64,000 nucleotides of DNA, taken from positions 11,741,901 to 11,805,900 of the forward strand of contig NC_057751.1 of NCBI RefSeq assembly GCF_004010195.1, in the 5' to 3' direction. The first letter of the stretch is position 1, and every line of letters begins with the position of its first letter. This stretch comes from Chiloscyllium plagiosum. Its lineage: Eukaryota. Below, piece by piece: positions 1,781 through 49,200 of the stretch. Below the pieces are notes generated by a model, which saw only the letters and a list, made by a program, of their open reading frames with translations, was not told the origin of the DNA and searched no databases. The translations under genes and the position numbers were made by a program.

Positions 1781-3249
1781 TATACAAAAAGAAGCAGAAT
1801 TTGAAGGGCAGGAACTGGTCCATCTTGCCTTGAACAGTCTTCCTGATTCAAACTGAGGCTTCAATCTTAGTTCCAGCCAATCATTTGTCTCAAGTCAGTG
1901 ACATTCCTTCCAGTGAAGGTCATGCACAGTACAGTATCTAAGTAAATAGCTTCACTCCTTATTGTTGGTACCAGCCCTGTCTCCCAATTATACAATAAAT
2001 GCATTACAGCTCATGGCTGAAAGTAGAGATGGGCCAGATTTTAACTGCCAGTTTATGATTTGTATCAAGCTTTTCAGTGGCAAAGACACCAATCCAGGCA
2101 GTAGAATCATTGAAAGCACTGTATTTTTAAAAAAAAAGGTTTGTCAAAACCTGAATGCAAACATCATGGATCCCACAGCATGGGTGAAGTAGGCAGATTT
2201 GCTGAATCTATTCAGGACATGGTTCTGCACTATAACTGCAGCATTGTACCTGTGCTTCGCATTAAATTCCTGATGATTTTAAAAAAAAATAAATAGGTCT
2301 TTAGGAACCATGTTGGTTTTGCAGTGTGCTAAAAAAGGCCAGTTCCTGTGCCTGGAATAGTATGGGTGGGTATATCCTGAGTGAAAGTTCCTGAGGGTGA
2401 CCACACTCACTGCATTTAAACGTTGACTTCCTGGTAGGCAAAAAAAAAGACCTTGAAATTTCTCACAGTATTGCTACCTCGTTCTGTGCCTTTGTCTGTC
2501 AGTAACTTCTTCATCATTGAGTCCAAACTGATTGTCACATTAGAGGTGTCCAACATTTATAATTTCCTTGTCGTTACTTTGCTGTGTTCAGCTGTTTGGT
2601 GATGCAACTCAAGTGCACAGAAGCCACACACTCAAAACTACCAAACCAATATTTAGAAATCTCCAGAGCAGTCATTGCAATGTGAGTGGTTTTGTATCCA
2701 ATACAGGAATTATTGTGATGCGTATCTCAATTATTTCTAATTTTTAAATTAGTGTCGTATTGAAATAACAAAATTGTAAAAGACAAGTTGGCCAACCTGT
2801 TATTTCTAAAAAGTAAGACTTGCATTTATAAGATTCCTATCTGAGCATTTTAACGACATTGAAGGACTTAGGAAGTGTAGATATTGGTGTAATGTAAACA
2901 ACGGCCAACATGCACAGAACAATATTTATTTATATTAAAATTTGCAATGAGGAAGGACACGACCAAATGATCCACTGCTGTTCCTATGAATTATTCTAAA
3001 TTGAGTGTAATTGTACATAAGAGATGTATCACAAATATTACTTCTAAAAAAGTTAAAATTGGATTTCATAAAGCATTTTTCATGACATGAGCACTGCTTG
3101 AACCACTTTGCAGTCAGTATTGGTCAGGATGGCTTGGAGATTGGGTAAGGGGACAAATTGAATGGAACTGCGTGACAGACAACTTCTGTCCTTGAGTGTG
3201 TGCGGAAGTTGAAATAATTTCATTTTTCTGTTTTGTTTTCTACAAACAG

Positions 3250-3333
3250 GCAGATAGCCCTGAGGAAATGGAAAGCTGGATGAAAGCCATCAATCAGGCA
3301 ATCAAGGCAGTCAAGTGTTCAAACAATCCCACA
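3250..3333 (+). CDS. PLEKHA2: PLEKHA2 (TAPP2) penultimate coding exon, end of second PH domain
   Basis: Polypyrimidine tract + CAG acceptor and GTACGT donor. 84 nt, phase 0/0. Encodes ADSPEEMESWMKAINQAIKAVKCSNNPT, matching the PH C-terminal helix of TAPP2 (recalled ADSPEDMHSWIKEIGAAVQALKC). Confidence 0.93.
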
Positions 3334-4449
3334 GTACGTCTCCCTCTTACATGTAAAATACTTGATTTGTTTGAGTCCACTGCTTAGTAAAGATAAAATT
3401 TTCAATTAAAAATACATTAAGGCTATATTGAAGTGCCAGCGGTTATATTATTGCTGATTGGCATGGCTGCACAAATACTGTAGGATAAATGGCACTCCGA
3501 GTAGCATCTTTCAGGAAAATGCTGCTTTTCTAATGTGGTAATGAAATTGTGATAATAGATTTTATGTTGTAAACAAAGAGAGTTGAAAAGAAATTAACTA
3601 GTTGCTCAGTATGTGTAATATATAATTTTGCTCATATCACTTCACACCGCTTTCTCCTTTTCAGAGCCACTAGCTGGTGGCTCAGGAAGAGTTGCAGTAC
3701 TGTCCATTGTGTGCCCTTCATGTTTCTGTTACCTTCATGTACTCATGTATGTGAGTAAACAACTTATACAGTTGTGATATGTTTGGGTGGGGTAGGGGGA
3801 GAGGTGTTTTTGAAGCTGACTTCAGTCTCCTGAACTTCACATCAGCAGAAGTTTGTGAGTGGCAATCAGAAGCAAAGACAACACTTGCATTCACTTGGCA
3901 TTTCTGAAGCCAAGGTGAATCCCAAAGTACCTTCTTAAAGCTGAGCTACTTGGTACTTTTCTGCCCAAACTTCATATTACCTAGTCTTGTTGCATTTGGA
4001 CATTGATATTAGGTAAGGTGACTGAAAGTTTTGTCAAATAAGTCAGTGTGAAGGACAGTCACAGGTGGCGAGAGGGATGGCAGGATTAAACAAGAGAACT
4101 AGAGCTTGCTGGAAGTATCAATGATGGTATAAAGGGAGAGAAGAATGCAAGTGAAGTTGAATTTTTTTTTCATTTATTCAAGAATCTGGGCACTTCTGGC
4201 CAGGCCAGCATTTATTTCCCATTCTTCATTGCTTTTGAGAAGGTGGTGGTGTGTTGCCTTCTTGAACTACATCAGTCCATTTGAAGTAGAATTGGAGGGT
4301 TTAAACTAATGCTCAAAACTAATAAACAGGGCAGTAGGAACCAGGGCAATAGGTCAGCATTTAGAGTGTTTGAAGAGAAGATAGCAGCTAAATCTAGTAA
4401 ACCTAATAGGAAGAACAGGCAGGGTAGGATAGGCAAGGGCTTCGTGAAA

Positions 4450-6194: not shown

Positions 6195-7710
6195 TCCTGG
6201 GAGACTGGACAATTGCAAATGTGACACTGTTGTTGAAGAAAGCGGGGAGGGATAACCCAGGGAACTACAAATCTGTCAGCTCAACATCAATAGTAGAAAA
6301 ACTGAAGGAGGAGAAAGTGAGGACTGCAGATACTGAAGATCAGCGTCAAGAGTGTGGTGCTGGAAAAGCACAACAGGTCAGGCAGCATCCGAGGAACAGG
6401 AGAATCAATGTTTCGGGCATAAGCCCTGACAGAAGGAGGCCATAATACAGAAAAAGATAAATATACACTTAGAGAAAAATACATTCATACCAGACTTTCA
6501 ACATGGCTTTGTCAAGGGTAGATCATGTCTGACAAATTTAATTAAATTCTTTGATGAGGTGACACAGGGAATGGATGAGGGCAGTGTTATGGATGTTGTA
6601 TATTTGGACTTTCAGAAAGCACTTGATATGATGCCACATGGCAGGGTTGGTTTGCACATTAGAAATGTTTGCGATTGATAGGTCCTTGGCAGCACAGATC
6701 AGAAGTTGGCTAGAACATCGGAAACAAAAGGTGGGTATAGATGAGCATTTCTCAGATTGGAGATAGCTGAAAGTGATGTTACGTGGGGTATGTGTTGCGA
6801 TCCTTGCTTTCTTTGCTTTATATAAATGATCAGTGTTGAAGACAAAATCTGTAAATTTGCATATGATACTAAGCGAGGAAGAAACGTGAAGTGTGACTTC
6901 AGAGGGACTTTGATAAGTTGGCCAAATGGGTAGACACCTGGCACATTAATTTCATTTCAGAGAAATGTGAAGTAATGCAGTTTCGTCGAAGAAACACAGA
7001 CAATTCAGGCTCAATTGTACAACTTTGAGGGGAATATCAGAGCAGAGGGACCTTTGAATTCAAATGGATAATTCTCTGAAGGTGGCTAGGCAAGTTGAAA
7101 CTATTGTTTAGAAGGCTTCTTGGATCCTTGAGTTTATAAAGAGAGGCAAAGGGTATAAAAGCAAGGAGTGATGTTGAACTGAACAAACCATTGGTCAGAC
7201 CATATTAAGGACAGATCTTAAAGGCCTGGAGAGTGCAAAGGAAATTTACTAGAATGGTGGCAGGCATGAGGGATTTTAGACACACAGAAAGATGATCAAA
7301 TTGGGCTCATTCTCCTTGGAGCGGAAAAAATTAAAAGCTGACCTTACTGAGATGTTCAAAATTATGAACAGTTTTAAGAGGGGTAAAGAAAGTTTTCAGT
7401 TTCCATTTCTTGGTATTTCACTAACTAGGAATCACTATTTCAAGATTGTCAGCAACAGAGCTCAGAGTGCGATGAGGAGAAGCCTTTTTTACTCAGAGAG
7501 TTGTGAGGATTTGGATTAGAGTGCCGAGGAGAGTGTGGAAGCAGATTCCGTGGAACATTTCATAGAAAAGCTGGATATATATTTGAAAGTGATTAATTTC
7601 GAGGGCTACCGAGAATAAGGCTGGAGAATGGAACTAGCTGGGTACCTCTTTCAGGAACTGGTACAGACACCATGGGCTGATTGGTATTCCTCTGTTCGAT
7701 AAAATTCTGA
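6195..7710 (+). mobile_element. CR1 LINE RT remnant with 3' tail
   Basis: KKAGRDNPGNYKSVS, QHGFVKGRSCLTNL, YLDFQKALD and FSLERKKLKADLTEMFKIM motifs. Confidence 0.85.
6312..6431 (-). mobile_element. Penelope-like solo terminal fragment inserted in CR1
   Basis: Same family as 18872-19490. Flanked by direct repeat GAAGGAGG (6304-6311 / 6432-6439). Truncated within the ribozyme motif. Confidence 0.75.
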
Positions 7711-7807: not shown

Positions 7808-7933
7808 GATTTGGAGATGCCGGTGTTGGACTGGGGTGTACAAAGTTAAAAATCACACAACACCAGGTTATAGTCCAACAGGTTTAATTGGAAGCACACT
7901 AGCTTTTGGAACGATGCTCCATCAGGTGATTGT
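7808..7933 (-). mobile_element. Penelope-like solo terminal fragment (second family), degenerate hammerhead
   Basis: CACCAGGTTATAGTCCAACAGGTTT is shared with 18630-18822. TSD GGGTCAT (7801-7807 / 7934-7940). Confidence 0.7.
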
Positions 7934-9404: not shown

Positions 9405-9613
9405 ATGCTGCAAAAGCCCAGTATCTATGGAGAGAAATAGTTATTGTTTCAGGGTCAATGGACTTTCATCAAAGTATTTCTGATGAGAGGTCCTGAAACT
9501 ATCTGGGACATTATCTGTGTTTCTGTCTTAACAGGTGCTGCCTGACCTTCTGAGCTTTTCCAGCTTTCATTTTCCTTCTGTCAGATTTCCAGCATCTGCA
9601 ACATTTTCCTTTT
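9405..9613. mobile_element. Old inverted-repeat Penelope-like remnant
   Basis: GTTTCAGGGTC...TTTCATCAAA faces CTGATGAGAGGTC. Tail GCTGCCTGACC...TTTCCAGCATCTGCA is shared with other PLE termini in the window. Confidence 0.5.
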
Positions 9614-9737
9614 GCAAGGACCAGAGGATCATAACCAGTTCATCATTTTTGAGAGGCTTACAGATTGCATGGTATTTAGAAAGGAAATTTCGGTGATGTT
9701 ATGTTCCCTTTCCTCATGAGTTTAATATCATTCACAG

Positions 9738-10148
9738 GCTCCGGTTCAATCCAGTTTCATCAGCAGAACTTCTTCGTCACAGCCAGTTGATTCGCTGACT
9801 GCATCAAACCCATCCCCCTCGGTGTTGTTATGGCCTCAGTCTAATTCCAAGCCCCAAGGAGAAGAAAAACGACCTCTCTCCAAGTCTACCTCCGTGGTGT
9901 CATCATGGCAGCCATGGACTCCTGTGCCAGGTACTGGTGAGCCACTTATGTCTCCAGTAGAGGAGGTGGGCAGGAATGAGAGTGCCCTGAAAACACCACC
10001 TGAAGTACCCAAACCACAGCTGTCAATGAAGGAAGATGTGAATGGTCAGGGGAAGCGCCGCAGACACAGGTCACAGCCAGCACCCAAAAAGGAGCATCAG
10101 TTCCAGTACAATGTTGATGATGACGGCATCCGAACAACAGATGTTTAA
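9738..10148 (+). CDS. PLEKHA2: PLEKHA2 (TAPP2) last coding exon
   Basis: TTCACAG acceptor, in frame with the previous exon. Encodes ...SVVSSWQPWTPVP...RHRSQP...FQYNVDDDGIRTTDV*, matching recalled TAPP2 SSWQPWTPVP / RHRSEP / DDENIRTSDV. Class I PDZ-binding end (T-D-V). Confidence 0.95.
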   Translation, partial: APVQSSFISRTSSSQPVDSLTASNPSPSVLLWPQSNSKPQGEEKRPLSKSTSVVSSWQPWTPVPGTGEPLMSPVEEVGRNESALKTPPEVPKPQLSMKEDVNGQGKRRRHRSQPAPKKEHQFQYNVDDDGIRTTDV

Positions 10149-17154: not shown

Positions 17155-17512
17155 ACACATTCGCATTTCTTTAACTGATGGATTATCCTAATCCAATGTG
17201 GGAGGTAGGGAAGGGAAACATCTGGGTCATTGGGAAAGTTTTATTTCTTGCCAATCACTGTAATTCAGTGGTGACCGACAATAACTAATTGTTCCTGTAA
17301 TTTTGACAAATTTCATTCCGAATGAATGCAAAGGTCAGTAAACGTTTGTTGAACTTTTGTTGCATTAAACTACTTCAAAATCTTATTTTTTGGAGGAATG
17401 ATCTGAAATACTTGCAATGATTGATCTTTCAAAATCGTCTTTGCAATGAAGCGTGTGTTTGCACGTTTGTGTGTGAGTTGTGATTCAGACATCCACCACT
17501 TATTTCATTTTC

Positions 17513-18056
17513 AACCGAAAGTAAGCTAAGGGAACGTTTCACCGAGCATCTCAGCCGAGCCCGCAGGGGCCAACCTGACCTCCCAGTCACTGCCCATTTT
17601 AATTCAGCTTCCCACTGCCTTTTGGACAAGACCATTCTTTGCCTCCTCCATTGTCACAACTAATCAAACCAAAATTGGGGGAACAACTTCTCATTTTCCG
17701 CTTGGGCAGCCTATAGCCAGGAGGACTCCACATTGAGTTCTCCAATCTCAAATAATCTCCCTTCTCATCACCTGGCTCCCTTCCCAGCCCCTCCCCCTCC
17801 CTTTCATTCCTCTCATCGACCCTTCCTTCTAGCCACCAACCAGATTCATTCCTCCCATTGACCAACCAGGTCATACCCTCTACCTGTGTTCACCTATCCC
17901 CAGCTTACCACCCTGTTCCCCCACACCCTCTTTATCTGCAGCTCCCCTTACACCCAGTAAGGGGAGTAATCCCAGTCTGGAAGAAGGATTACACCCAAAA
18001 TGTTGACTTCTCCATCTCCTGATGCTTGCTGTTCTTCCAGCCTCCTGCCTGTCTAT
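17513..18056 (+). mobile_element. Penelope-like element, 5'-truncated: GIY-YIG endonuclease remnant plus terminal repeat
   Basis: Translates TESKLRERFTEHLSRARRGQPDLPVTAHFNS and KLGEQLLIFRLGSL*PGGLHIEFS. Followed by a pyrimidine-rich UTR and a degenerate hammerhead at ~17984-18008. Confidence 0.85.
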
Positions 18057-18099
18057 TCTTTGAAGAGGATTTGACCAAACAACACAGTGGCAGATGTGA

Positions 18100-18470
18100 T
18101 GGAGAAAAGGAAAATGTGCATATATATAGCTTATTTCACAACCTCAGGATCTTCCCCAGCTTTTCACAAAGTGGTTTTGAAGCGTAGGCACTATGGTAAT
18201 AAGGAAATGCATCAGTTACCACAAACAACAATGTGGTAATGATCAAAGACACAATTTTTATTTTGGTTTGTTGTGGAATAACTATTTTGCAAGATTTGGA
18301 AGGAATATCCTTTGCATTCCTTTGAAAGAGTGCCATGGAATCTGTGGGGTGAGAGGAAGCCTTGATAAAACATCACCTCCAAAAGACAACACAGCTCTGT
18401 GCAAGCCTCTGGGCTAACATATGAACCCTCAGCCTTCAGAGGTCAAAGTGATACTTGCTCAGCTGTGGCT
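18100..18470 (-). mobile_element. Deu-domain SINE (SacSINE1/AmnSINE1-like), old copy
   Basis: Reverse-complement similarity to the copies at 32590-33290 and to 59630-60010. Confidence 0.5.
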
Positions 18471-18629
18471 GGCTCGTGATGATTTCAAAACAGTAATCCA
18501 GAACCAGTGGGATTCAACTAAATTCCATGTCACCATTCCCAGGCTGAACAATTGGGTTTGCTGAGGACCACTTGTCACTGGAAGAGTGATGCTGCCTTCA
18601 TTGCCACAAAACAATCACCATTTTTACCA

Positions 18630-18822
18630 AGATGTGGACTGGGGTGAACAAATTAAAACTCACCTAATACCAGGTTCCAGTCCAACAGGTTTATTTGGAA
18701 CTACAAGCTTTCGGCACGCTGCTGCTTTGTTAGCTAGCTACCTGACGAAGGAGCTGCACTCCGAAAGCTTGAACTTGCAAATAAACCTGTTAGACTATAG
18801 CCTGATGTTGTGTCATTTTTAT
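18630..18822. mobile_element. Short palindromic Penelope-like element (inverted terminal repeats)
   Basis: Left arm CCAGGTTCCAGTCCAACAGGTTTATTTG...AAGCTTTCGG pairs imperfectly with right arm CCGAAAGCTT...CAAATAAACCTGTTAGACTATAGCCTG. Confidence 0.8.
18739..18773 (+). ncRNA. Minimal hammerhead ribozyme motif (core intact, helix I weak)
   Basis: CTGACGA-A-GGAG-CTGCA-CTCC-GAAA-GCTT. Confidence 0.6.
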
Positions 18823-18962
18823 CAATGCAGTCTTGTTTTTAAAAAAAATTCCAATGTGCACTCACGATGAGGAGAAAGTGAGGTCTGCAGACGCTGGAGA
18901 TCAAAGCTGAAACTTTATTGCTGGAACAGCACAGCAGGTCAGGCAGCATCCAGGGAACAGGA

Positions 18963-19000
18963 CATTCGACGTTTCGGGCACATGCCCTTCTTCAGGAATG
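18963..19000 (-). ncRNA. Minimal type I hammerhead ribozyme
   Basis: Reverse complement reads CATTC-CTGAAGA-A-GGGC-ATGT-GCCC-GAAA-C-GTC-GAATG. Confidence 0.8.
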
Positions 19001-19160
19001 AGCAGAGAGTGTTCAGCAGGAGAAGATAAAAGGTAGGGAGGAGGGACTTGGAGGAGGGGCGTTGGAAATGTGATAGGTGGAAAGAGGTAAAGGTGAAGGT
19101 GATAGGTCGGAGTAGGGTGGAGGCGGAGAGGGCAAGAAGAAGACTGCAGGCCAGGAAGGC

Positions 19161-19215
19161 NNNNNNNNNNNNNNNNNNNNNNNNNNNNNNNNNNNNNNNN
19201 NNNNNNNNNNNNNNN
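19161..19215. other. Assembly gap (55 N)
   Basis: N run at the centre of the inverted repeat. Confidence 0.99.
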
Positions 19216-19396
19216 GAATCCCTCCAGCCCGGCACTGCCTTCCTGACCTGTAGTCTTCTTCTTGACCTCTCCGCCTCCATCCTACTCCGACCTATCACCC
19301 ACACGTTGACCTCTTTCCACCTATCACATTTCCCACGCCCCTCCTCCAAGTCCCTCCTCCCTACCTTTTATCTTCTCCTGCTGAACACTCTCTGCT

Positions 19397-19434
19397 CATT
19401 CCTGAAGAAGGGCATGTGCCCGAAACGTCGAATG
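19397..19434 (+). ncRNA. Minimal type I hammerhead ribozyme
   Basis: CATTC-CTGAAGA-A-GGGC-ATGT-GCCC-GAAA-C-GTC-GAATG. Helix I CATTC/GAATG, helix II GGGC/GCCC, GUC cleavage triplet at 19427-19429. Confidence 0.8.
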
Positions 19435-19807
19435 TCCTGTTCCCTGGATGCTGCCTGACCTGCTGTGCTGTTCCAGCAATAAAGTTTCAGCACTCACGAT
19501 GAGAAATGCAGAATTAACTTGTTGGCTTGCTACTCAGCAATTTACACGATCAGACAATGTCAGGATTTATTTCATTGGATTGCTCTCTGCCAAGTTACAG
19601 TGCGGGTTTGCTTTACACTAATGCTGGATAGTAAAGGGTATTCACATTTAGCAGCAAAGCTTTGCTCTCAAGGTTGGCAGTAACAGCAGTCATTGAGACA
19701 TGGTGCCATCATTCCACTGTGGGGAATAATTGCATACCTAAAATTTTTTGGAAAGCAGAATGCTTCTGAGCTTTCACGATGGGGCACATGACTAATCTTT
19801 TCAAGAA

Positions 19808-20104
19808 TAGATTACATTACAGTGTGGAAACAGGCCCTTCGGCCCAACAAGTCCACACCGCCCCGCCGAAGCGCAACCCACCCATACCCCTACATTTACC
19901 CCTTACCTAACACTACGGGCAATTTAGCATGGCCAATTCACCTGACCTGCACATCTTTGGACTGTGGGAAGAAACCGGAGCACCTGGAGGAAACCCACAC
20001 AGACACGGGGAGAATGTGCAAACTCCACACAGTCAGTCGCCTGAGGCGGGAATTGAACCCGGGTCTCTGGCGCTGTGAGGCAGCAGTGCTAACCACTGTG
20101 CCCA
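19808..20104 (-). mobile_element. HE1-like (V-SINE) tRNA-derived SINE
   Basis: Reverse strand has A-box CACAGTGGTTAGCACTG, B-box GGTTCAATTCCCG, body TGTGGAGTTTGCACATTCTCCCCGTGTCTG and a CR1-like tail. Confidence 0.9.
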
Positions 20105-23100
20105 CAACTTGCAAAGGATTGAATGCAAATATGTTGTGCAGATTTTTAGAATGCCAACTAGATAATTGTTGAAAAACATGGTCATGGAAAAATATGATGA
20201 CCATCAGTCATGAGTTGTTGAACACACTGAGAAATGTTTTTGGAAAATGCCTAAAGGCCTTCTGCCATAACTGCCCAGCCCTAATGTCTACAAATGTCTC
20301 TGCATCTACAAGCTGCAATTGAGCTGCACTTCCAGGAAAAGAACAGAGCTTTTTGAGCAGCAGTGCCCACCCCTACCCCACCACTGAACTTGAAGGTTCA
20401 ATTTTCAAATGCCACCCAACACAGGTCCACTTCCAGTTTCACACAAATTCTTGCCATTAACTAACTTCATCAATGAAACAAAAATGAGACACAAACAAAG
20501 CAAGAAAGCAAGGAAAATGTCAAATTTCACTTAACTGAGCCCAGTCCTGTAGATTTGGCACTTCAAAAAGATGTTTGGTGTTTGCATCATTCCTGTCCTG
20601 GAAAACTAACACTTTTGGCTTTTTGAGAAATTTCTTTTGAATTGCTGTCAGCATGGTGTCGCAAACTGAGTTAATTGAATACTTTCCAGCAATTCCATTT
20701 TAACCACTTCTAGAGCACAAATAGGAAATCGCTACATGAAGGTGGAGGGTAAGCAAAGTTGAAAGATCTACAAGACAAATAGCAATATAAATTTTAAATC
20801 TGAAAGGGTCTGTGGCTTTGAGGCACAAAGAATTTAATGTTTCTCTCAAACTATTTTTCCTAAAATATTTTGACTGCTAATAAAGGGTCAGACGAGGTTT
20901 TGAAAGTACCAGAGCAGCCTTGAAAAGGCTTTTGCCATGTCTTGTATTTTTCAGCATCTCATGCATGAGACACATGTTTCCCTGAATATTATGAAAGCAA
21001 CACCTTGCTTTTACATAGTGCCTTCAGCTGACTAAAATGTCCCAAGGTATTCAACAGCAGCATCAGCAAACAAGATTTGTGTCTGTGGTGTTGGGAAATG
21101 TGATTACAGGTTTGGTCATAGAGTTAAGTTTTAAGGCCCAGCTTAAAGGAGGAAAGAGAGAGAGGGTGGCGTTGAGGGAAGGAATTGAGAATTTACAGCT
21201 GAGGGCACCAATGCAAGAACAAAAGCGGTCTTTCTGCACCAGCTTTTCTGATCATGTCTGGTCTGATGGCTACATGTGCACATGCCTGAATTGCTGCTGC
21301 TAATATGGATTACAAATTCATTAGAATGGCCTATACCCATTCATCCATTCCAAAAGATCCCGAAACCTTTCAGTATTCCATTTTCCCCCTCACAACCCCC
21401 CACCCCCCGCCACTTGCCAACAAATCTTTCAACCCATGCATCCTTTGAGGTTACAGCAAGGTTTGAGATGACCTGCTCAAATCTCCACCCCAAGTGCAGC
21501 AATATTTTAAACTTGTACCCTCTGGGTTATAGAGCCCCAAAGATTGCTTCATCTGGACGTGTGTAGGGAGAAGATAGCCTTCAGAAGACCAGGCAGCATG
21601 TTGGCTACCAGTTTAGGAGGACAGGGATGAGGCATTGGGTGAGAAATATTAGTGTTTGAGTGGCATTCCCACTTGCCCCATCCCTTTGCTGCATCAACCC
21701 CCCCTTGGGCCAATCACATCACTGACATCATTCTGCTGCAAGTCACCTTTGTGGAAATTTGTAATGAGTTGGAAAGCAATGGATAAGACATCTGTCATGC
21801 TGGCTAAGGTGACAGATATTGGTATTTTAAGGCATTGCAGCTGTGCACACACTGCAAGGATTCATTTGGGAAACTTGCTTGAAGTTCAATGGTCTTAAAG
21901 TTTCTCTGGGCGGCGGGTATCTTTGTACCCTGGGCCAAAGTATACTAAACATTGGAAATAGGAGCCTTGTTTAAGTAATTTCTCCACATAAACTAACCTT
22001 TGGTGCTATAGTATCATTCAGCTAAATCTGCATTGCACTTGTTCCAATGACAACAGATTCTTTACAAGGTGCAGTGCCCAAATGTGTACTCAGTACTCCC
22101 AAGTACTCTAATCAACACTTGTGCTGCTGTGGCACACGTTCCCCCTCTCCTTCAATCAAATGTCGAGATGCAAAAGCAACATTTTGTCAGCTGTTCTGAT
22201 TGGAAATTGGAGAAAGTAAATTCTGAGATAGAGAGAGGCATATATTTGGAATTTTAAAGGAAAACTCAGTAGTAAGTGGGTTAATGGCATATGCAAACAT
22301 TCAATCACGAGAACCTGAGTTTTCCAAAGAATAAGGACACATTAATAAAATTTGAAAAAAATGAATTTATTGCACTTGGAATTGTTTGCACTTGTCATAA
22401 TTCCAAACCGTCAAAGACTGAAAGATACAGTTTCTCTTTGTTGTTGACACATGCTTTATGCCGGGAGATAAAGAACATAGAGGTTCTGACAAATGCACCC
22501 ATCTTTTTGGCAGAAGCTGAGATTTCAAAAACAGGGTGGAATGTCTGAGCAATTTGGGCTATGGCAACATTTATGACAGATGCCGAAAAGAAATCCATCA
22601 AGGTTCATCTCCACATTGGAGGCTCCACTTTTTATACCTTTGAAAACCAACATGACGAGTTTCTCACCAGGCAGTATTGCCAATTAAAGGAGATTGTCAT
22701 TTGTTAAATGCCTCATTAACGTCACAACTCATGTAATTAATAGTTAACTTTGAATCTAACCAAACACTCCAAACAAGTTAAATGCTGAGAAATTTCATGG
22801 AAATCAGTGTAAGTACCTGACAATTTCAGCTCACAGCTGCTGCAAAGGACCTCTGTATTGGACAGTGGACCCACTTAATGAGCATGAGCCGCACACATCC
22901 AATGTCCACCGGCACTGTGGTTCAACATATTCAGTCTCATAAACCCTCATGGCAAATCTCCTAACCACTTACAAGACACTGCAACACTTCGATACTGCAT
23001 CTCTAGCTGCATCGCCAACTATCATTGTAATACTACAGCAAGGAAACTGAGCAATCAGGAACACACACCCAGCTTATGGCTATACCAGGCTACCTCTCTG

Positions 23101-23884: not shown

Positions 23885-25872
23885 TAGACCATAGACCATA
23901 AGACATTGGAGCAGAAATTAGGCCATTCAGCCCATCGAGTCTGCTCCACCATTGAATCATGGCTGAAAGTTTCTCAGCTCCAATATCCCACTTTCTCCCT
24001 GTAACCCATGATCCCCTTAACAATCATGAACCTATTTATCTCCGTCTTAAAATTCCAAATATATGCCTCTCTCGATCTCAGACTTTACTTTCTCCAATTT
24101 CCAATCAGAACAGCTGACAAAATGTCTTAAATATACTCGATGACCTGGCCTCCACAGCCGTCTGTGGCAGTGAATTCCATCGATTCACCACTCTCTGGCT
24201 GAAGAAGTTTCTCCTTATCTCTGATATAGAAGATGGTATTCGTAATAACATTAGCAAATTTGCTGATGATACTAAGCTGGGTGGCAGGGTGAAATGTGAT
24301 GAGGATGTTAGGAGATTACAGGGTGACCTGGACAAGTTAGGTGAGTGGTCAGATGCATGGCAGATGCAGTTTAATGTGATAAATGTATGGTTATCCACTT
24401 TGGTGGCAAGAACAGGAAGGCAGATTACGACCTAAATTGAATCAATTTAGGTAAAGGGGCAGTACAGAGAGATCTGGGTGTTCTTGTACACCAGTCAATG
24501 AAGGTAAGCATGCAGATACAGCAGATAGTGAAGAAGGCTAATAGCATGCTGGCCTTCATAACAAGAGGGCTTGAGTATAGAAGCAAAGAGGTTCTTCTGC
24601 AGCTGTACAGGGCCCTGGTGTGCAGTTCTGGTCTCCAAATTTGAGGAAAGACATTCTGGCTATTGAGGGAGTGCAGCGTAGGTTCACAAGGTCTATCCCT
24701 GGATTGGCAGGATTACCTTACACTGAAAGACTGGAGCGACTGGACTTGTATACCCTTGAGTTTAGAAGACTGAGAGGGGATATGATTGAGACATATAAGA
24801 TTATTAAAGGATTGGACACTCTGCAGGCAGAAAACATGTTTCCACTGATGGGTGAGTGCCGAACCAGAGGACATAGCTTAAAAATATGGGGTAGACCATT
24901 TAGGACAGAGATGAGGAGAAACTTCTTTACCCAGAGAGTGGTGGCTGTGTGGAATGCTCTGCCCCAGAGGACAGTGGAGGCCTAGTCTCTGGATTCATTT
25001 AAGAAAGAGTTGGATAGAGCTCTCAAGGATTGTGGAATCAAGGGTTATGGAGATAAGGCAAGAACAGGATACTGATTAAGGATGATCAGCCATGATCATA
25101 TTGAATGGTGGTGCAGGCTCGAAGGGCAGAATGGCCTACTCCTGCACCTATTGTCTATTGTCTAAAAGGTCTTCCCTTTACTCTAAGGTTGTGCTGTCAG
25201 GATCAAGTCTCTCCTTCCAATGGAAACATCTTCCCAACATCCACTTTGTCCAGGTCATTCAGTATTCTGTAAGTTTCTATTGGATCCACTCTCATCCTTC
25301 TCAACTCCATCAAATATAGATTCAGAGTCCTCAAACATTCCTCATATGTTATGCTTTTCATTCCTGGGACCATTCTCATGAACCTCCTCTGAAAGTGCTT
25401 CAGGGCCAATACATCCTTCCTGAGATATGGGGTGCAAAACTGCATACAATCCTCCAAATGTGATCTGACCACAGCCTTATAGAGCCTCTGAATTATATCT
25501 CTGCTTTTATATTCAAGTCCCCTCAAAGTTAATGCATCATTGCATTTGCCTTCCTAACTACTAACTCAACCTGCAAGTTTACCTTGAGAGAATCCTGGAC
25601 GTGAACTCCCAAGTCTCTTTGCACCTCAGCTTTCTGAATTTTCTCCCCATTCAGAAAATACTACATTCCTCTATTCTTCCTACCAAACTGCATGACTTCA
25701 CACTTTCCCACGTTGTATCCCATCTGCTACATCTTTGCCCACTCTCCTAACCTGTCTAAATTCTTCTGCAGCCTCCCTGCCTCCTCAATGCTACCCGTCC
25801 CTCTAACTATCTTTGTATCATCTGCAAACCTAGCCAGAATGCCCTCAGTTCCTTCATCTAGATAGTTAATGT
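23885..25872 (-). mobile_element. CR1 LINE 3' portion interrupted by a nested + strand CR1 (~24222-25162)
   Basis: Minus ORFs 25203-25526 and 24105-24398 (RRNFFSQRVVNRWNSLP). Plus ORF 24620-24985 (QFWSPNLRKDILAIEGVQRRFTR). Confidence 0.85.
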
Positions 25873-37084: not shown

Positions 37085-39397
37085 TCTTTCCCCCTCTAAG
37101 TCCGGGGATGTAGGCCTGTTCTTGTAGCCTCTTCTAGGACATTTTTGCGCTGGGTCCGGGTCCTCTGACTCAGCCTCAGATACGGACGAGCGTACTGGAC
37201 TATCACCCACTTCTTGTGCCCTGAGCATCTCTGAAGAAGTTCATCCTGTTCTTCAGGTGTTAAAGGCGTCAAAGCTGCAACATCCACATTGTTCATCTCA
37301 GACTCTGAGGTTTCTTCAGTGTTGGATGGAGGGGGAGAACCTATGGGTTCCAACAGTCTTTCTGGCTTTTCTGTGGGGCCGGTTATGCTTTGCTCCTAAC
37401 CTGTTTGTAAGTTTGTAGCTTTCATCTGGCCCATGTGCTTGTTCAGGACTGCCCCACCTACCTTAACTTGGTACATCATCGGACCTGACCTTGCATTGAC
37501 CATGCCTCTTACCAATGCAGGACCATTTCTGGGTTTCAGCACCAAACTTTATCCCTTAAATAAACTGTCTCTTTTGCTGAGAGGAGTCTTCTGCCTGGCA
37601 ATGACATTCCTGATGCCATTTCACCCTCATTCCCAGGTCTGGGAAAATCAGATTTAACCTGGTGTGGAGTCTTCTCCCCATCAGCAACTCTGCTGGAGCT
37701 ATCCCTGAGGATTGTTCCCATAATGAAACAGGAACTGGGACAGTTTGGTATTGAGTGAAGCTGAAGGCTGTTTCTTTACGCCTTGAGAGTTTGAACTGTC
37801 CTTTCCCACCAGACATTGCACAATGAATGGAATGTAGCTGTCTGTATATTCTGTTTGCCATTCGACTTTAGGAAATACTTAAATTTCCTGCTGATAAATG
37901 ACGGCCAATTGCCTGTGACCAACACTTCCAGGAGCCTGTGCATTGCAAAAGTTGATTGGAGCTTTTCTATTGTCATCCCAGTGTTTGATGAGTGAACTCT
38001 ATACACGTCTAACCACTTTGAATGGGCAGCCACAATGACGTGAATGTTGAACCCACGAAACAGCTGAGTAGTCGATGTGTAACTGAGTTCAGGGTTGACC
38101 AGGCCATTCCCACAAATTTATGCCTATAAAGGTGTTTGTGGAACTTTCTCACACCAAAGATGACCGCCAGACTTGCCTTCTCTATCTGGGCACATTTTTG
38201 CTCTGCATTAGCCAAAGTCCAGGAATCATATGCTATTGGGTGTTCCTTTCCATTCGGCCATCTGTGAGCCAATATTACCTCAATATCATACAGACAGGCA
38301 TCACATGTCAGCACCAGATCTCACTTGGGACCATAGAGTGCCAACATCTTAGACAATGGTAACTGCTTCTTCACTTCCCTAAAGACTACTTCTTGCTATG
38401 AGACTATTTCCAAGGCTGACTCTTTCTCAATAGCAGATATAAGGATGCCAGGACGAAGACTGGATTACATACGAACTTTCCGTAATAATTCACCAATCAA
38501 AGGAAAGACGTCAGGTCTGGTACAAATGTGGAGCCAGTGCACCTTTGATTACCCTCACTCTATTTTGCAATGAGTGTAACATGGTCTTGTCAATTCTGTG
38601 GCCCAAGTAGGTCCACTTAGGGTGCCTTGTGCACACATTTCTCCCTTCTAAGGTGTACACGTGCCTTGGAGAAACATCTAAGGATAATGTCCAAGTTCTC
38701 TAAGTGCTCTTTATTGGACTTCCTTGTTATTAGCATGTCACCCAGATAAATGGCAACCTGAGGTAGACCTTGTAAAATGTTCTCAATCATCCGCTGAATA
38801 GTAGCACAGACAGATGAAACCCCAAATGACCGTCTCATGTATTGGTACAAACCTTTACGGGCATACCTCTGGGAATCCTTATCTGACCGCAATTCGTGAA
38901 GTATGGCCCTTAGCCACCAGCTTTGTGTATTCGTCCTCTATGTGAAGGATTGGGTATTTATCTAACTGCAAGAAGTGGTTTACCATTTGTTTAAAATCCC
39001 CACAAATGCAAACTGACCCGTTGGACTTCACAATTGGTACGAATTGGACTGGTTTGATTGATTCATTCGCTTTTCAGCCTCCTGATTGCTGACTCCACTT
39101 TTGCACATAACACAACCGGGTGGGCCTTGCAGAATCGTGCAATTGCTTCCTGATCAAATTGTAAGGTGGCCTTGGCTCCTCTGGAAGTCTCTAGACTTTG
39201 CTGAAAAATTTCTAGGTGTTTAACTGGACTTCACTCTTACAGCCATTTTCTCATCAAAAAGTATTGAGCCAATCAAGGTGAATCTTTCTCAAACAATTTC
39301 ACCCCATCAGGCTTGGGCCCAAGCCTTTTACTTCAATCAGAGGTAACTGAACCAGTTACTTCTCATAGAAGATCAGAACTGAAGTTGTCCCCTACAT

Positions 39398-44679: not shown

Positions 44680-45150
44680 AGTTTCTTCCCCCCGCCCTTG
44701 TTGACCGTGGATCATGCTGGGCACCGTGCTGCTGCTCAGTTTCTGTGTGATGGCGGTGAACGGGAGAGTGATGAGACACGCCTGCCCCCAGGTCTGTGAC
44801 CGATCCCGGTGCGCCCCAGCGCCGGTGAACTGCTCCGAGGGCCAGGTGAAGGACTCGTGCGACTGCTGCACCGTCTGCGCCGCGGCCGAGGGCGAAAGCT
44901 GCGGGGGGCGGGAGGACGTGCACGGTGTCTGTGCGGAAGGCTTCCAGTGCATCTACTCGGCTGGCAAGCGCAAGAAGGGCACCTGCGGCTGCCCGCACAA
45001 CGATGAGGTGTGCGGCAGTGACGGCCAGACTTACAGCAACATCTGCCGCCTGAAGGCTCTGAGCCGCCAGCACCAGTCCTCCAACGCGCTTCCTGTCATT
45101 CTGATCCAGAAGGGAGCCTGCGATGCAGGTATGTATGAACACCGGCTTCT
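44680..45150. promoter_or_regulatory. CpG island over HTRA4 exon 1
   Basis: High GC and abundant CpG compared with the CpG-depleted background. Confidence 0.75.
44714..45128 (+). CDS. HTRA4: HtrA serine peptidase exon 1 (signal peptide, IGFBP, Kazal)
   Basis: MLGTVLLLSFCVMAVNG, CPQVCDRSRC..DSCDCCTVC..EGESCGG and VCGSDGQTYSNICRL..IQKGAC. Donor G|GTATGT, phase 1. Confidence 0.9.
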
Positions 45151-46177
45151 GTCAGTATGAGTGGTCATCCAGGGGCTTAGGATCATGCTCTGGGGTGTGA
45201 ATTCACCGAACACTTGATTAACTAATATCAATCATCCGAAAACCCCATCCCGTTCACTCATTGCACTTGGGGACTGAAATCTGCATATCTCACCTGGTCT
45301 GCTCCCCATGTGATTCCAGGTCGATCCCACAGCAACGTGACTGGCGTCTCTTCACTCATTCACGGGATTGCGGGGGGGTCATTGGCCAGGTCAACACTCA
45401 TTGCTTTTCCCTAATTGTCCTTGAGAAAGTGGCGGTGACGAGTTGCTTTCTTGAACCGCCGCCTTGTGGTGTCAGACCACTGCTTTGTTTGGAAGGGAGT
45501 TCCACAATTTTGACCCAGCCACACACAAAGGAAGCCGTTTATATTTACAACTCAACGATCTTCTGATATGGCATCAGTTCAAGGGCAATTAAGGGTGGGA
45601 AACAATTGCTAGCCTTGCAGCATTGCTTACACAATAAAATAACTTTTTGAAGTGCTTTCAGTCAAAAACTAACCTTTATTAACTGAACTATTGTCCTTTC
45701 AATTCTAAATTGTATATCGTCTTGTCAACCTAACCTTGTGCCCTTCTTCCTCAACATCACCTCATTGTTATCACACATCTCTGAATCAGATGGGACTATG
45801 AACTCAGGCCTCCTTGTCCTGAGGTTTTGACACTGTCACTGCACCTGGAGGGCCCCACATATTTGTTTGCACAGTTACCTATGAGACCTTTTTCATTCAA
45901 TATTCACGCAAACTTGCTCCTTCAGACTTCACTTTGTCATTTTGCCAGTTGGTACCATCTTTCAATCAAGAAGGAAGGTCACATTTACATTTTACAATCA
46001 AGTGCAAGCACCTCTTACCAAGCATCAAAAAAGCTTTTCATCATTAACACCTCACTGACACAACTGTTAAGAGTACACAAATTTTATCAGTGCAAACAAA
46101 ACTTATCAATCGGTTAGCTGAAATTATAATTCTTAAATATCTCTTAAATGAACAATGGTTATTTGCCTCATAAAAAT

Positions 46178-46293
46178 GTCCTAATGAAGAGCTTATGCTT
46201 GAAACATCGAATCTCTTGCTCCTCGGATGCTGCCTGACCAGCTGTACTTTTCCAGCACCACAATTTTCGACAGCATCTGCAGTCCTCACCTTT
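46178..46293 (+). mobile_element. Penelope-like solo terminal repeat with degenerate hammerhead
   Basis: CTAATGA-A-GAGC-TTAT-GCTT-GAAA-CATC. TSD TCATAAAAAT (46168-46177 / 46294-46303). Confidence 0.8.
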
Positions 46294-49200
46294 TCATAAA
46301 AATTTCCACAGAATACATGGATTTTGTGAAAGATGGTGGGACAGAAGTTTTGAAAACAAATTTGTCTGACCAAGCTTTCCAAGGGCTGGTCACTTCCACT
46401 TCAGCAGAAATGGAAAAAAAAGCTTTTGATGGTCGGGCATTCAGGATGGCCTTTGATCAAATCCAAATATTCAACCAAGTAAACTGATACAGCAATACTA
46501 TTCAAGAAGTTATCTGTAAAGGAACTTGTATCAGGCATGGTAAATGTTGCTGCTCTTAAGGATGAGCACAAAAATAAGGCAAGACCACAGTTGTAAAGGT
46601 GTGGTGAAGGAATTAACAATTGTGAAAGCAAATCATAATTGAAAGGAATATGTACATTGTAATTTAGGTGCCATGATGAGAATTCAAGTATTATGCAGGA
46701 AGGAACTTGCCAGACCTTCACCACCAAGTCATTGAAAGGGAAACTTGTGCACACTTTCAGAACACAACTTGGAACAAATGATATACACGACTGGCCTTCA
46801 GAAAAGTCAGTCATATTAAGAATGCATTTTGTCATTTTTACCCCTAACTTCCCTGATAATCTTCATCAAGATAATGATCCATTCGCCAGCAATAATTGGA
46901 AGTTGTCCTTTTGACACTGACTGAAAAATGCTTCAGAAAAGCCAGAATCCACAGAATAGTCTGAGTTTTTACATGAACATGAAGGAAAAGTCACAAAAGT
47001 GCCAGTATTTTATGTTTCAAAGTGGCACTTGCAAAAAGTACTTTGGCTGGGGATCCAGTAGTTGTACCATCACTTAAAGTTGGTCAAAAATAGATTGTGA
47101 ATACCACTGTAGTGTTAAGTCAGAATGTTATAATGGAACATGATTGTTCCCAAGTAAGTTTATACTCATCAGACAGTTGTGCTATTCTGAGAATGTTGAA
47201 AGGAGATTCAAATGTTCGAAATCATGAAGGGGCAGGACTGGGAGGAAGAGAAACTGTTTCACAGATACAAAGTCAAGAAACAGAGGATGCAATTTAAACT
47301 TTTTGGCAAATGGAAACATGAAAGTTTTTTTTTGTTTTGCTACTAGTTACTATTTCAAATAATGTTCGTTTAGCTAGCTAAATTGGTTGGACAGCTGGTT
47401 TGCAATCCAGAGTAACGCAACAATGTGGGTTCAATTTCTGTGCCAGCTAAGGTTACCATGAAAGATTTTCTTTGCAATCTCTTCCCCTGCCTGAGGCATG
47501 GTGACATTGGGGTTAAACCAGTTGTCTTTTTCCAATGGGAGAGCTATCCCATGGTCTGATAAGATTTTGGCAAATTTACCATTATCATTTTGAATGCACT
47601 GCCTGAAAACTGATGGAGACTGATTCATTTGCTCTTTCTAAAGGGGAATAGAAGAAGCATCTGAAAGAAAGTTTGAAGGCTCTGGGGGTGGGGGAAGGGA
47701 GGGGGAGCAGTGAGATTAGCTAAACTTTCTCAGGTAGAGAGCTGGCCCAGGCCCAATTGGCTGAATAGACTCCTTTCATGTTGTAACCGTTTCTAATCAA
47801 ACGATTCTTCTCAGCAAGGTCAGCATTTCTAGCAACTGAGTTTCCAAAATGCAGCACGTCTAGTTTATAACAACCATGAAAGTGATCTTGCAGTCATCTG
47901 GTGTCAACACTGTAATGTGATTCCCAGATATATTTTTGGATCTTTTGTCAGCAGTTTTCACAACAAATTGTTTCTTCTGAGAATCAGCTGGGTCACAGTT
48001 TGACCATTGAGTGAACAAGGTCTTGTTCTGCAACCTTTATTAGGCTGGTTGAAAGTAGCAGCTAAATGCACAAGATTCAATGTTAAGTTTTCACCTTCCT
48101 CGAAAGCCAATGCTGCAAACTAACTCTGAAGACTTATGCCAATGTAAATTTGTTGAGAAAGACACAAGAAATAAAGGACAATTTATCGACAATGAAGCTG
48201 TTTCCTATTGGTGTCATGAGGCTGTGGTGCAGTGGGGAGTCCCTGTGCCTCTGAGTCAGGTGGTTTAGAATTACAGTCCCACTGGCATGAGCACATGATG
48301 CAGGCTGACATTGCAGTGTGGCAGTCAGGAAGCACTGAATTTTTGAAGAGGTTGTTACTTTTTCAGATGGATCCATTTCATTATTTTAGGAACGCAGAAC
48401 CTACTGGTGTTCTGCAAAGATTTATTCCTCATTCAAGACCAATTAAACAGATCATTACTGCATTGCTGTTTCTGGAATGTGACGGAGAGAGAAGATTTGC
48501 TTTTATAAATACTGTTCACAATCCAATGTGTTGAATGGACAATTAAGAACTTTTGAAGTGTAGCCATTGGTGAAATGCTTGTCAACTGAGTCAGCAAAGT
48601 AAGCTTATTGGGTGTTAGTTGCAACAGAAGTTTCCATGGTATTATTTGCACACCGGTGCATGTTGAAACAATCAGATTTGGTCACTTGCCACTTGAAGCT
48701 CTGTGCAGAACCTATCCTGATGAACACAGACATTATTGCAGTGAAGACGTTGCCCCCTCGGCTCACTCCCAGCACTAGCATTCAGATCCAGCTGCTGTTA
48801 ACTGGATGAGTGTATTGAATGTTTCACAGAGGTGCAGCGTTGAGGAAATCAATGAGAGTCTATCAAGAGCCATGAATCTAGATCTCTTCGAATGGTAACA
48901 GGAGCTGGATTTTCCTCAAAAAAATAACATCGTCTTGCTGTATGAATGGCATCATCATGCCACAGCTATGTCTGAATTTCTGAGTAGTGAGAAATTATTG
49001 ATCAACAAGCTAGCTCCAGAGGAATTAACTCCATGCTACAGCTGCTATGATTGAGAAAGTTAAAACTATTAGATTGAGAAGGCTTGTTTGTTTATGAGAC
49101 AATTTTTTTTCAGTTTGTCCCTCATTTAAGAATAGATCTTGAAGCTTGAGCCTCTCAGGCTATGAGTTTTCTGTGAGCATACACTGTATTTATCAAGATA

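Follow-up and report, generated by a model that had tools for sequence, protein, structure and literature searches.

How does a short insertion come to carry one hammerhead ribozyme motif on each strand, and do the two ribozymes act where they lie? The question is raised by positions 18858–19503 of the window, the 64,000-nucleotide stretch of DNA analysed here, which read as a 14-mer, a 34-nt unpaired tail, a left arm, 55 N, a right arm and the 14-mer again. The features, in order, are as follows.

18858–18871: left copy of the target-site duplication (TSD), 14 bp; its last 2 nt are also the usual end of the family
18872–18905, minus strand: one-sided tail of 34 nt, or 36 nt if the 2 nt shared with the TSD are included; it forms the 3′ end of the left copy
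18906–19160, minus strand: left arm, the 3′ part of a pseudo-LTR (pLTR), element sense minus; inner end cut by the gap
From 18949, minus strand: ATG-opened frame of 26 codons through left arm and tail
18963–19000, minus strand: minimal type I hammerhead motif of the left arm; predicted cut 3′ of the C at 18968
19161–19215: assembly gap of 55 N (possibly different from the true length) covering the head-to-head junction
19216–19489, plus strand: right arm, the 3′ part of a pseudo-LTR without the tail, element sense plus
19397–19434, plus strand: minimal type I hammerhead motif of the right arm; predicted cut 3′ of C19429
19448–19491, plus strand: ATG-opened frame of 14 codons in the right arm
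19490–19503: right copy of the TSD; the arm runs on into its first 2 nt

We conclude that the insertion very probably consists of the tail ends of a Penelope-like element set head to head, likely produced by priming on two nicked strands, with ribozymes that are likely passive and locked within a hairpin. We hold the type of element and the passenger status of its ribozymes with slightly greater assurance still; as to how the second arm was made, we lean towards two-strand priming as opposed to fold-back copying.

The two arms (18906–19160 and 19237–19491) align over 255 nt and are 96% complementary, the 14-bp direct repeats (18858–18871 and 19490–19503) match exactly, and the tail (18872–18905) has no partner in the right arm, which bears out the original prediction of inverted arms, a 34-nt unpaired tail and a 14-bp TSD. 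Its description of the arms as near-perfect holds for the outer 157 nt, which contain no mismatch, and not for the inner 98 nt, which contain all 9 (Fisher P = 1.4 × 10−4). Both hammerheads lie within the outer, mismatch-free zone, at most 130 nt from unique flank. Both pseudo-LTR 3′ ends point outward, and the adjacent copies are head-to-head and 5′-truncated; the right arm is judged to be cut by the gap because family contigs, as seen from their loose ends, run on beyond 19216. The right arm and the right TSD overlap by 2 nt (19490–19491), and the tail is also present in older window copies at 6311 and 46295.

We compared the region 18200–19800 with four of 24 available sequencing runs: DNA runs X1 and X5 from organism A (X1 being possibly the source sample of the assembly), DNA run X13 from a related species, organism B, and RNA run X21. 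Organism B carries an empty site: in contig 10 of X13 (1,660 nt), record positions 1–74 correspond to 18784–18857 and positions 75–382 to 19490–19800, which joins 18857 straight to 19490, with one 14-mer and no element. This single 14-mer fixes the TSD and both boundaries of the insertion. The organism B flanks differ from the window at 34 of 881 sites (3.9%). A contig of X1 at flank depth (record 8, 19466–19800) starts inside the right arm, crosses the TSD and continues into the flank with no differences; it holds 24 element bases, under the 31-base bridging standard applied. Among the 24 pieces listed of about 71,000, there was neither a contig across the whole element nor the left junction, and the 15 joints listed (of 402) included no empty-site joint in organism A, nor did they include the known one of X13.

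The arms belong to a highly repeated family, with a summed depth (which is not a copy number) of 10^5–10^6 on the arms against 9–18 on the flanks. An inner-arm subfamily at 19226–19279 (90% likeness) reaches depths of 534,390 and 515,452 in the organism A runs compared with 4,050 in organism B; because the depth is more than 100-fold higher in both A runs, the subfamily has likely expanded in the lineage of organism A. Joints that fold back from 18987–19002 to 19395–19415 make up 13 of the 15 joints listed (of 402), so that other family copies turn at the hammerhead or a little upstream of it. Two listed joints (19001 or 19002 to 19395) keep both hammerheads whole, in 19 contigs of X1, 2 of X5 and 5 of X13. 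Such fold-backs are found in each of the three DNA runs, so that a pair of intact ribozymes, one on each strand, recurs within the family and in both species; the only peculiarity of the copy at 18858–19503 is that both of its arms extend at least 160–185 nt further upstream. In four of the 15 joints listed the sequence resumes precisely at 19395, which lies 7 nt upstream of the core of the hammerhead, a hint that the template RNA has a preferred 5′ end there rather than at the cut site.

Older solo relatives of the arms, truncated at the 5′ end, lie elsewhere in the window at 6311–6427 (minus), 46179–46295 (plus) and 9536–9600 (plus); those at 6311–6427 and 46179–46295 extend from within the hammerhead, or from slightly upstream of it, to the tail. 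The ATG-opened frame is kept in three of the four window loci translated. Residues 285–311 of XP_043542746.1, a PDZ-domain gene model of Chiloscyllium plagiosum, run into the pLTR-tail peptide of the family, the repeat there being either exonised in the model or misannotated; this model places the family in a bamboo shark. A metagenome scan with the hammerhead pattern gave no matches. From 48 metagenome loci carrying a 19-nt pattern, the best 40 BLAST matches spanned 20–28 nt around the pattern, and none was accepted as a member of the family.

In the right motif, helix I (19397–19401/19430–19434) is followed by the core CUGAAGA (19402–19408), an extra A (19409), helix II (19410–19413/19418–19421), GAAA (19422–19425) and the palindrome ACGU (19425–19428). 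All core bases (CUGAAGA, GAAA and GUC) are intact in both motifs. A type I hammerhead descriptor matches 19397–19434 on the plus strand and 19000–18963 on the minus strand, with the 3′ side outward in each arm. A loose descriptor finds four matches in the window, namely the two arm motifs and two weak ones with 3–4-bp stems; a strict minimal descriptor finds exactly the two arm motifs in the window and none in 200 dinucleotide shuffles. One minimal hammerhead per strand, with helix III reduced to the palindrome ACGU, is therefore what the locus holds, as had been predicted. The search with hammerhead models proposed at the same time had a divided outcome: the descriptor recovers both motifs, and the Rfam covariance models return no hammerhead match for this motif without helix III (E ≤ 5 on 17500–21000; E ≤ 10 on 19370–19470).

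All four marks of the minimal hammerheads of Penelope-like elements are present: a helix I of 4–5 bp, the extra base, G10.1–C11.1 and a palindromic 15.2–16.2 without a loop. The fifth pair of helix I involves G19434, a minority allele with at most 2% of the family depth in run X1, and helix I is 4 bp in most family copies. Helix II is 4 bp in the motifs of this insertion. Among three other copies in the window, which are decayed or truncated, one keeps helix II through changes of G–C to A–U and of G–C to G–U; a second hammerhead-bearing family in the window also keeps helix II and has a different palindrome (AGCU). Helix II is self-complementary (−22.6 kcal/mol as a duplex), which we treat as incidental because the loop differs in other copies. 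For minimal type I hammerheads of metazoan Penelope-like elements, monomers are described as inactive and dimers as weak (PMC4209133), and a review gives the same account of the dimer cleavage work of Lunse et al. (PMC6765202).

Would these motifs fold in an RNA made at the locus? The isolated 38-mer folds helices I and II at −10.4 kcal/mol with a probability of 0.64, and a 51-nt stretch folds no better than its shuffles (z = −1.0). For a lone sense arm, the probability of helix I ranges from 0.0 (19216–19503) to 0.17 (19340–19503). A read-through RNA of the whole element is predicted to form a hairpin of −547 kcal/mol, the N being left unpaired, with probabilities of 0.0 for helices I and II. 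In the growing transcript, 23 of 24 possible arm-to-arm pairs are formed once the end has reached 19260, and 157 of 164 by 19400, when the core is yet to be transcribed, and arm pairing is predicted to begin about 160 nt before the ribozyme is transcribed; these are equilibrium folds of truncations rather than kinetic ones, and the folding models ignore proteins. Any RNA across the locus would thus consist of the antisense arm first, which would then pair with the sense arm from the centre outward. The layout agrees with the original prediction that a transcript from either strand contains one ribozyme, with the antisense arm made first, and the folding supports, within the limits of such models, its suggestion that a long hairpin could sequester the ribozyme. 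Because one transcript has only one sense motif, two motifs cannot share a helix III in cis, and pairing of ACGU with ACGU contributes only −1.7 kcal/mol. In read-through RNA, then, the ribozymes of this locus are predicted never to fold and to stay idle.

The junctions bear on how the arms were made. Family contigs end modally at 18870 (111 contigs in X1, 51 in X5 and 85 in X13), and RNA reads of run X21 end there 155 times and at 18869 72 times; this modal family end lies 2 nt inside the left TSD. At each junction a cDNA starting there would have its first 2 nt in common with the 3′ end of the target strand, and the two starts are 36 nt apart. The chance of 2-nt matches at both junctions is about 1/256 if the start sites are fixed and higher otherwise, at what is a single locus. 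Position 19491 did not appear as a preferred family start among the 24 loose-end rows listed of 1,016. The 14-mer target has 7 of 14 bases G or C, is not AT-rich and has no ATT at the junctions.

A mechanism that would give this structure begins with an element-encoded GIY-YIG nuclease nicking both strands, 14 nt apart. The 3′ end of the top strand would pair over 2 nt with the element RNA and prime at the tail end, and that of the bottom strand would pair over 2 nt and prime at a second start 36 nt further upstream; the tail would then be on one side only because of the position of this second start. Both cDNAs would end early, at least 160–185 nt past the hammerhead, and be joined 5′ to 5′ within the present gap, and gap filling would double the 14-mer. 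The hammerhead would be copied along because it lies only 60–130 nt from the start sites. The closest published precedent for these steps is the enzyme of the lizard element PAc, which cuts and extends both strands, with two internal start sites that bound the tail; the PAc ribozyme is dispensable for insertion and cleaved only with protein added (PMC11167929). The same enzyme prefers AT-rich ATT targets, and that account reports no homology at priming (PMC11167929). The origin of inverted pairs in Penelope-like elements has been called undefined (PMC8557442).

A possible, although in our view less likely, route to the same element type is that the second arm arose by fold-back: a cDNA or antisense template would have primed itself at the centre and been copied towards the tail, leaving arms that were identical at birth and inner mismatches that reflect later mutation or assembly noise. 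Such self-priming has been proposed for inverted Penelope pairs (PMC3846280). It would suit the identity of the outer 157 nt, in which both arms carry an allele (18963/19434) that accounts for no more than 2% of the family depth in X1; this combination fits arm-from-arm copying and two RNAs of one source equally. It would also suit four of the nine inner mismatches (left 19132; right 19251, 19301 and 19305), the alleles of which have 0–0.35% of the family depth in X1 and are private changes or errors. The 2-nt match of a target 3′ end at both outer junctions is instead what two primers would leave, and the lizard enzyme extends both strands in vitro (PMC11167929). The left alleles at 19089 and 19097, moreover, fall at sites where 9–10% of the family depth in X1 departs from the majority, and may be subfamily alleles from a second template; all of these allele shares are rough, contigs being placed at best fit and rare variants dropped, and cover the 7 of 9 mismatch sites among the rows listed. 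At 19334 the right-arm allele is the majority among the contigs placed there in X1. It is doubtful that we can go as far as a dimeric Penelope enzyme that, in vivo, used 2-nt matches to prime both strands at two fixed start sites, with either two different RNAs or two pLTRs of a tandem RNA as templates, the inner-arm differences then being template differences; were this so, the locus and its siblings could decide between twin priming and the published self-priming. It is more doubtful still that the inner arms, the size of the gap or the whole inversion is an artefact of contigs grown from unique flanks into a high-copy repeat. The mismatches do start about 157–190 nt from unique sequence, roughly one short-read length by our inference, and all are adjacent to the gap; no contig listed spans the element, and insertions of this kind trouble short-read assemblies (PMC8557442). 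The empty site nevertheless establishes the 14-bp duplication as genuine, a separate contig set (X1, maybe the source sample) contains the right junction, the one-sided tail and outward 3′ ends match real fold-backs of the family, and both hammerheads lie close to unique flank. The simplest reading would take the outer arms as correct and young, and the ~100 nt to either side of the gap as badly assembled; two templates or conversion are further possibilities.

The age of the insertion and the activity of its ribozymes invite two further alternatives. The insertion had been called young, and the empty site in organism B and the far deeper subfamily in organism A support that claim; the arm identity does not, as the total arm divergence (9 of 255, or 3.5%) equals the 3.9% divergence of the A and B flanks, from which 9.8 mismatches would be expected. 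This agreement is what an insertion as old as the A/B split or older would give, had it been lost precisely from B between the 14-bp repeats and had its outer arms been gene-converted, and long inverted repeats are known to promote deletion between short flanking repeats. We consider such a history improbable: the inner-arm subfamily is more than 100-fold scarcer in organism B, and an insertion of that age would, in the absence of conversion, leave 157 nt free of mismatches with only P = 0.002 (95% upper bound on divergence, 1.9%). Least probable of all is that the locus is transcribed and acts as a switch, in which self-cleavage competes with a long double-stranded RNA that feeds siRNA or ADAR pathways. 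Both motifs retain every core base, the isolated 38-mer folds, X21 contains family RNA from both strands genome-wide, and Penelope-derived small RNAs are reported in rotifer and fly (PMC3846280). In the predicted folds, however, the hairpin excludes the ribozyme entirely, even the lone sense arm 19216–19503 gives no helix I, and each transcript offers one sense motif and a weak ACGU/ACGU contact; in these predictions the hairpin wins outright, and the working competition between self-cleavage and double-stranded RNA that had been anticipated is not supported. Expression at the locus was gauged from ~2% of one poly(A) single-cell run (X21), a 3′-biased and therefore weak test. There, 1,328 reads fall on the repeats; 94% of them run on into unlike sequence and the repeat reads are accordingly assigned to other loci. 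RNA depth is 0 in 13 of 13 unique-flank bins and 0.11 in the bin beside the right TSD, no pile of read ends is seen in a type of run that cannot show cleavage ends, and places with A>G or T>C changes number 12 and 11 in the RNA, much as in the DNA runs (8 and 10, 8 and 7, 15 and 12). The locus also appears to be intergenic.

The surroundings of the insertion are consistent with that position. No host-gene domain was found between 10148 and 44705 among 100 long frames. An open frame at 9726–10148, likely the last exon of a host gene, ends 8.7 kb to the left of the insertion, and PDB and Atlas searches with the frame 9726–10145 returned nothing usable; a match at 3196–3384, likely a host exon that encodes the end of a PH domain, is weak (E = 7 × 10−4, below the cut-off). 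On the other side, an exon with IGFBP and Kazal domains at 44705–45160 (plus) is likely the first of a host gene. We take the host exons around the insertion to be PLEKHA-like and HTRA-like. The neighbourhood holds other repeats. An older fold-back of the second hammerhead-bearing family, at 18654–18821 with arms that are 75% complementary, lies 36 nt to the left of the TSD; it has one core left (plus strand, 18742–18770, palindrome AGCU) and is also present in organism B, with 15 extra bases behind 18632, and a further copy of this family is at 7832–7923. At 19805–20105 there is a repeat of about 300 bp with nine more BLAST matches in the window, which to us looks like a shark tRNA-derived SINE. 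Fragmented RT, RNase H and integrase matches at 37779–38937 (minus) likely mark an LTR retrotransposon, and a 79-bp inverted pair with 97% identity (22179–22257 and 24047–24125) is spaced by about 1.8 kb.

The assignment to Penelope-like elements rests on architecture, since no RT or GIY-YIG sequence is tied to the family: no open reading frame with a telomerase-like RT and a GIY-YIG endonuclease was found in the arms, the centre being a gap, or in 138 long frames of window positions 1–44700. A protein search with the pLTR peptide identified no parent RT, and a search for longer proteins gave one candidate and none at E ≤ 10. We rejected both matches of the profile search: P0001, a tandem-repeat protein, because the match came from a short motif that it repeats, and P0002, which is XP_043542746.1, the Chiloscyllium plagiosum model with the exonised repeat, because it is not an RT. 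Two other kinds of element were considered and set aside. MITEs and fold-back DNA transposons have symmetric terminal inverted repeats that reach both ends and a short TSD of fixed length; the present insertion has ends that differ by 34 nt and a TSD of 14 bp, and its family includes solo 5′-truncated copies. A non-LTR retrozyme needs direct tandem units with at least two hammerheads on the same strand, and here the units are inverted, with one motif per strand. The ATG-opened frame at 19448 may possibly represent the first codons of the parent open reading frame, by analogy with the rotifer elements described in PMC3846280.

Taken singly, the locus carries little weight, being apparently intergenic and only one among a great many fold-back insertions of a repeat family in a shark-type genome. 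What it offers is a clean specimen: the empty site is verified, the boundaries are exact, both junctions show 2-nt matches and the subfamily is lineage-restricted. Many such loci could inform how Penelope-like elements form inverted pairs, the step called undefined in PMC8557442. The arrangement of hammerheads on opposite strands is neither rare in the family nor new in print. In the main texts of open-licence papers in PMC and bioRxiv we found no paper on a shark Penelope family that bears hammerheads, and supplements may list shark elements; one paper that came up speaks of a shark solely to describe the shape of the ribozyme, and the whale shark paper names Penelope among the superfamilies present. 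The shark family may therefore lack a published description, and describing it, if it is undescribed in print, would be cataloguing.

The combination of inverted pLTRs, tail, TSD and minimal hammerheads on opposite strands is already published for Penelope-like elements. A typical unit consists of an inverted 5′-truncated copy with a one-sided tail of 30–40 bp (PMC8557442), and in the rotifer Adineta vaga an inverted pLTR is accompanied by a 31-bp tail and a 9–10-bp TSD, with the first 12 codons of the open reading frame in the pLTR, or the first 22 once the tail is counted (PMC3846280). Pen2a_Av and the Pen2 derivative (Arkhipova et al. 2013, PMC3846280; Craig et al. 2021, PMC8557442) share with our insertion the inverted head-to-head pLTR ends, the TSD, the 5′ truncation, the one-sided tail (31 nt compared with 34 nt here) and a frame, opened by an ATG, that begins in the pLTR and continues into the tail. 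The present insertion is unlike them in that no open reading frame is seen between the arms, where there is a gap of 55 N, in its TSD of 14 bp as opposed to 8–10 bp and in its shark-type host.

The ribozymes have equally close counterparts. The minimal hammerheads of Penelope-like elements (Cervera and de la Peña 2014, PMC4209133) are likewise of type I, with a helix I of 4–5 bp, an extra nucleotide, G10.1–C11.1 and a palindromic 15.2–16.2, and in Schistosoma dual minimal hammerheads occur 100–700 bp apart on opposite strands (PMC4209133). The Schistosoma families have a helix II of 7–8 bp compared with the 4 bp here, where the motif is known from sequence, and the passages of that paper on these ribozymes do not name sharks (PMC4209133). 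The non-LTR retrozymes (Li, Clavereau and Pollet, bioRxiv 10.64898/2026.07.22.740005), found in the one chondrichthyan sampled in that work, are also non-coding, carry a type I hammerhead and are related to pLTRs; they differ in forming direct tandem arrays with at least two ribozymes on the same strand.

For the insertion itself the nearest system is PAc (Poseidon of Anolis carolinensis; Frangieh et al. 2024, PMC11167929), in which two starts bound the tail ~80–120 nt downstream of the hammerhead, both strands are used and insertion proceeds without need of the ribozyme. PAc differs in its AT-rich ATT targets without homology, whereas the target here has 50% G+C and 2-nt matches at both ends, and in an open reading frame that starts at stem II, whereas here the only conserved ATG lies 38 nt beyond the point where stem II begins (PMC11167929). 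The element at 18858–19503, which may belong to the Poseidon or the Neptune clade, resembles a Penelope-type insertion and probably works as one.
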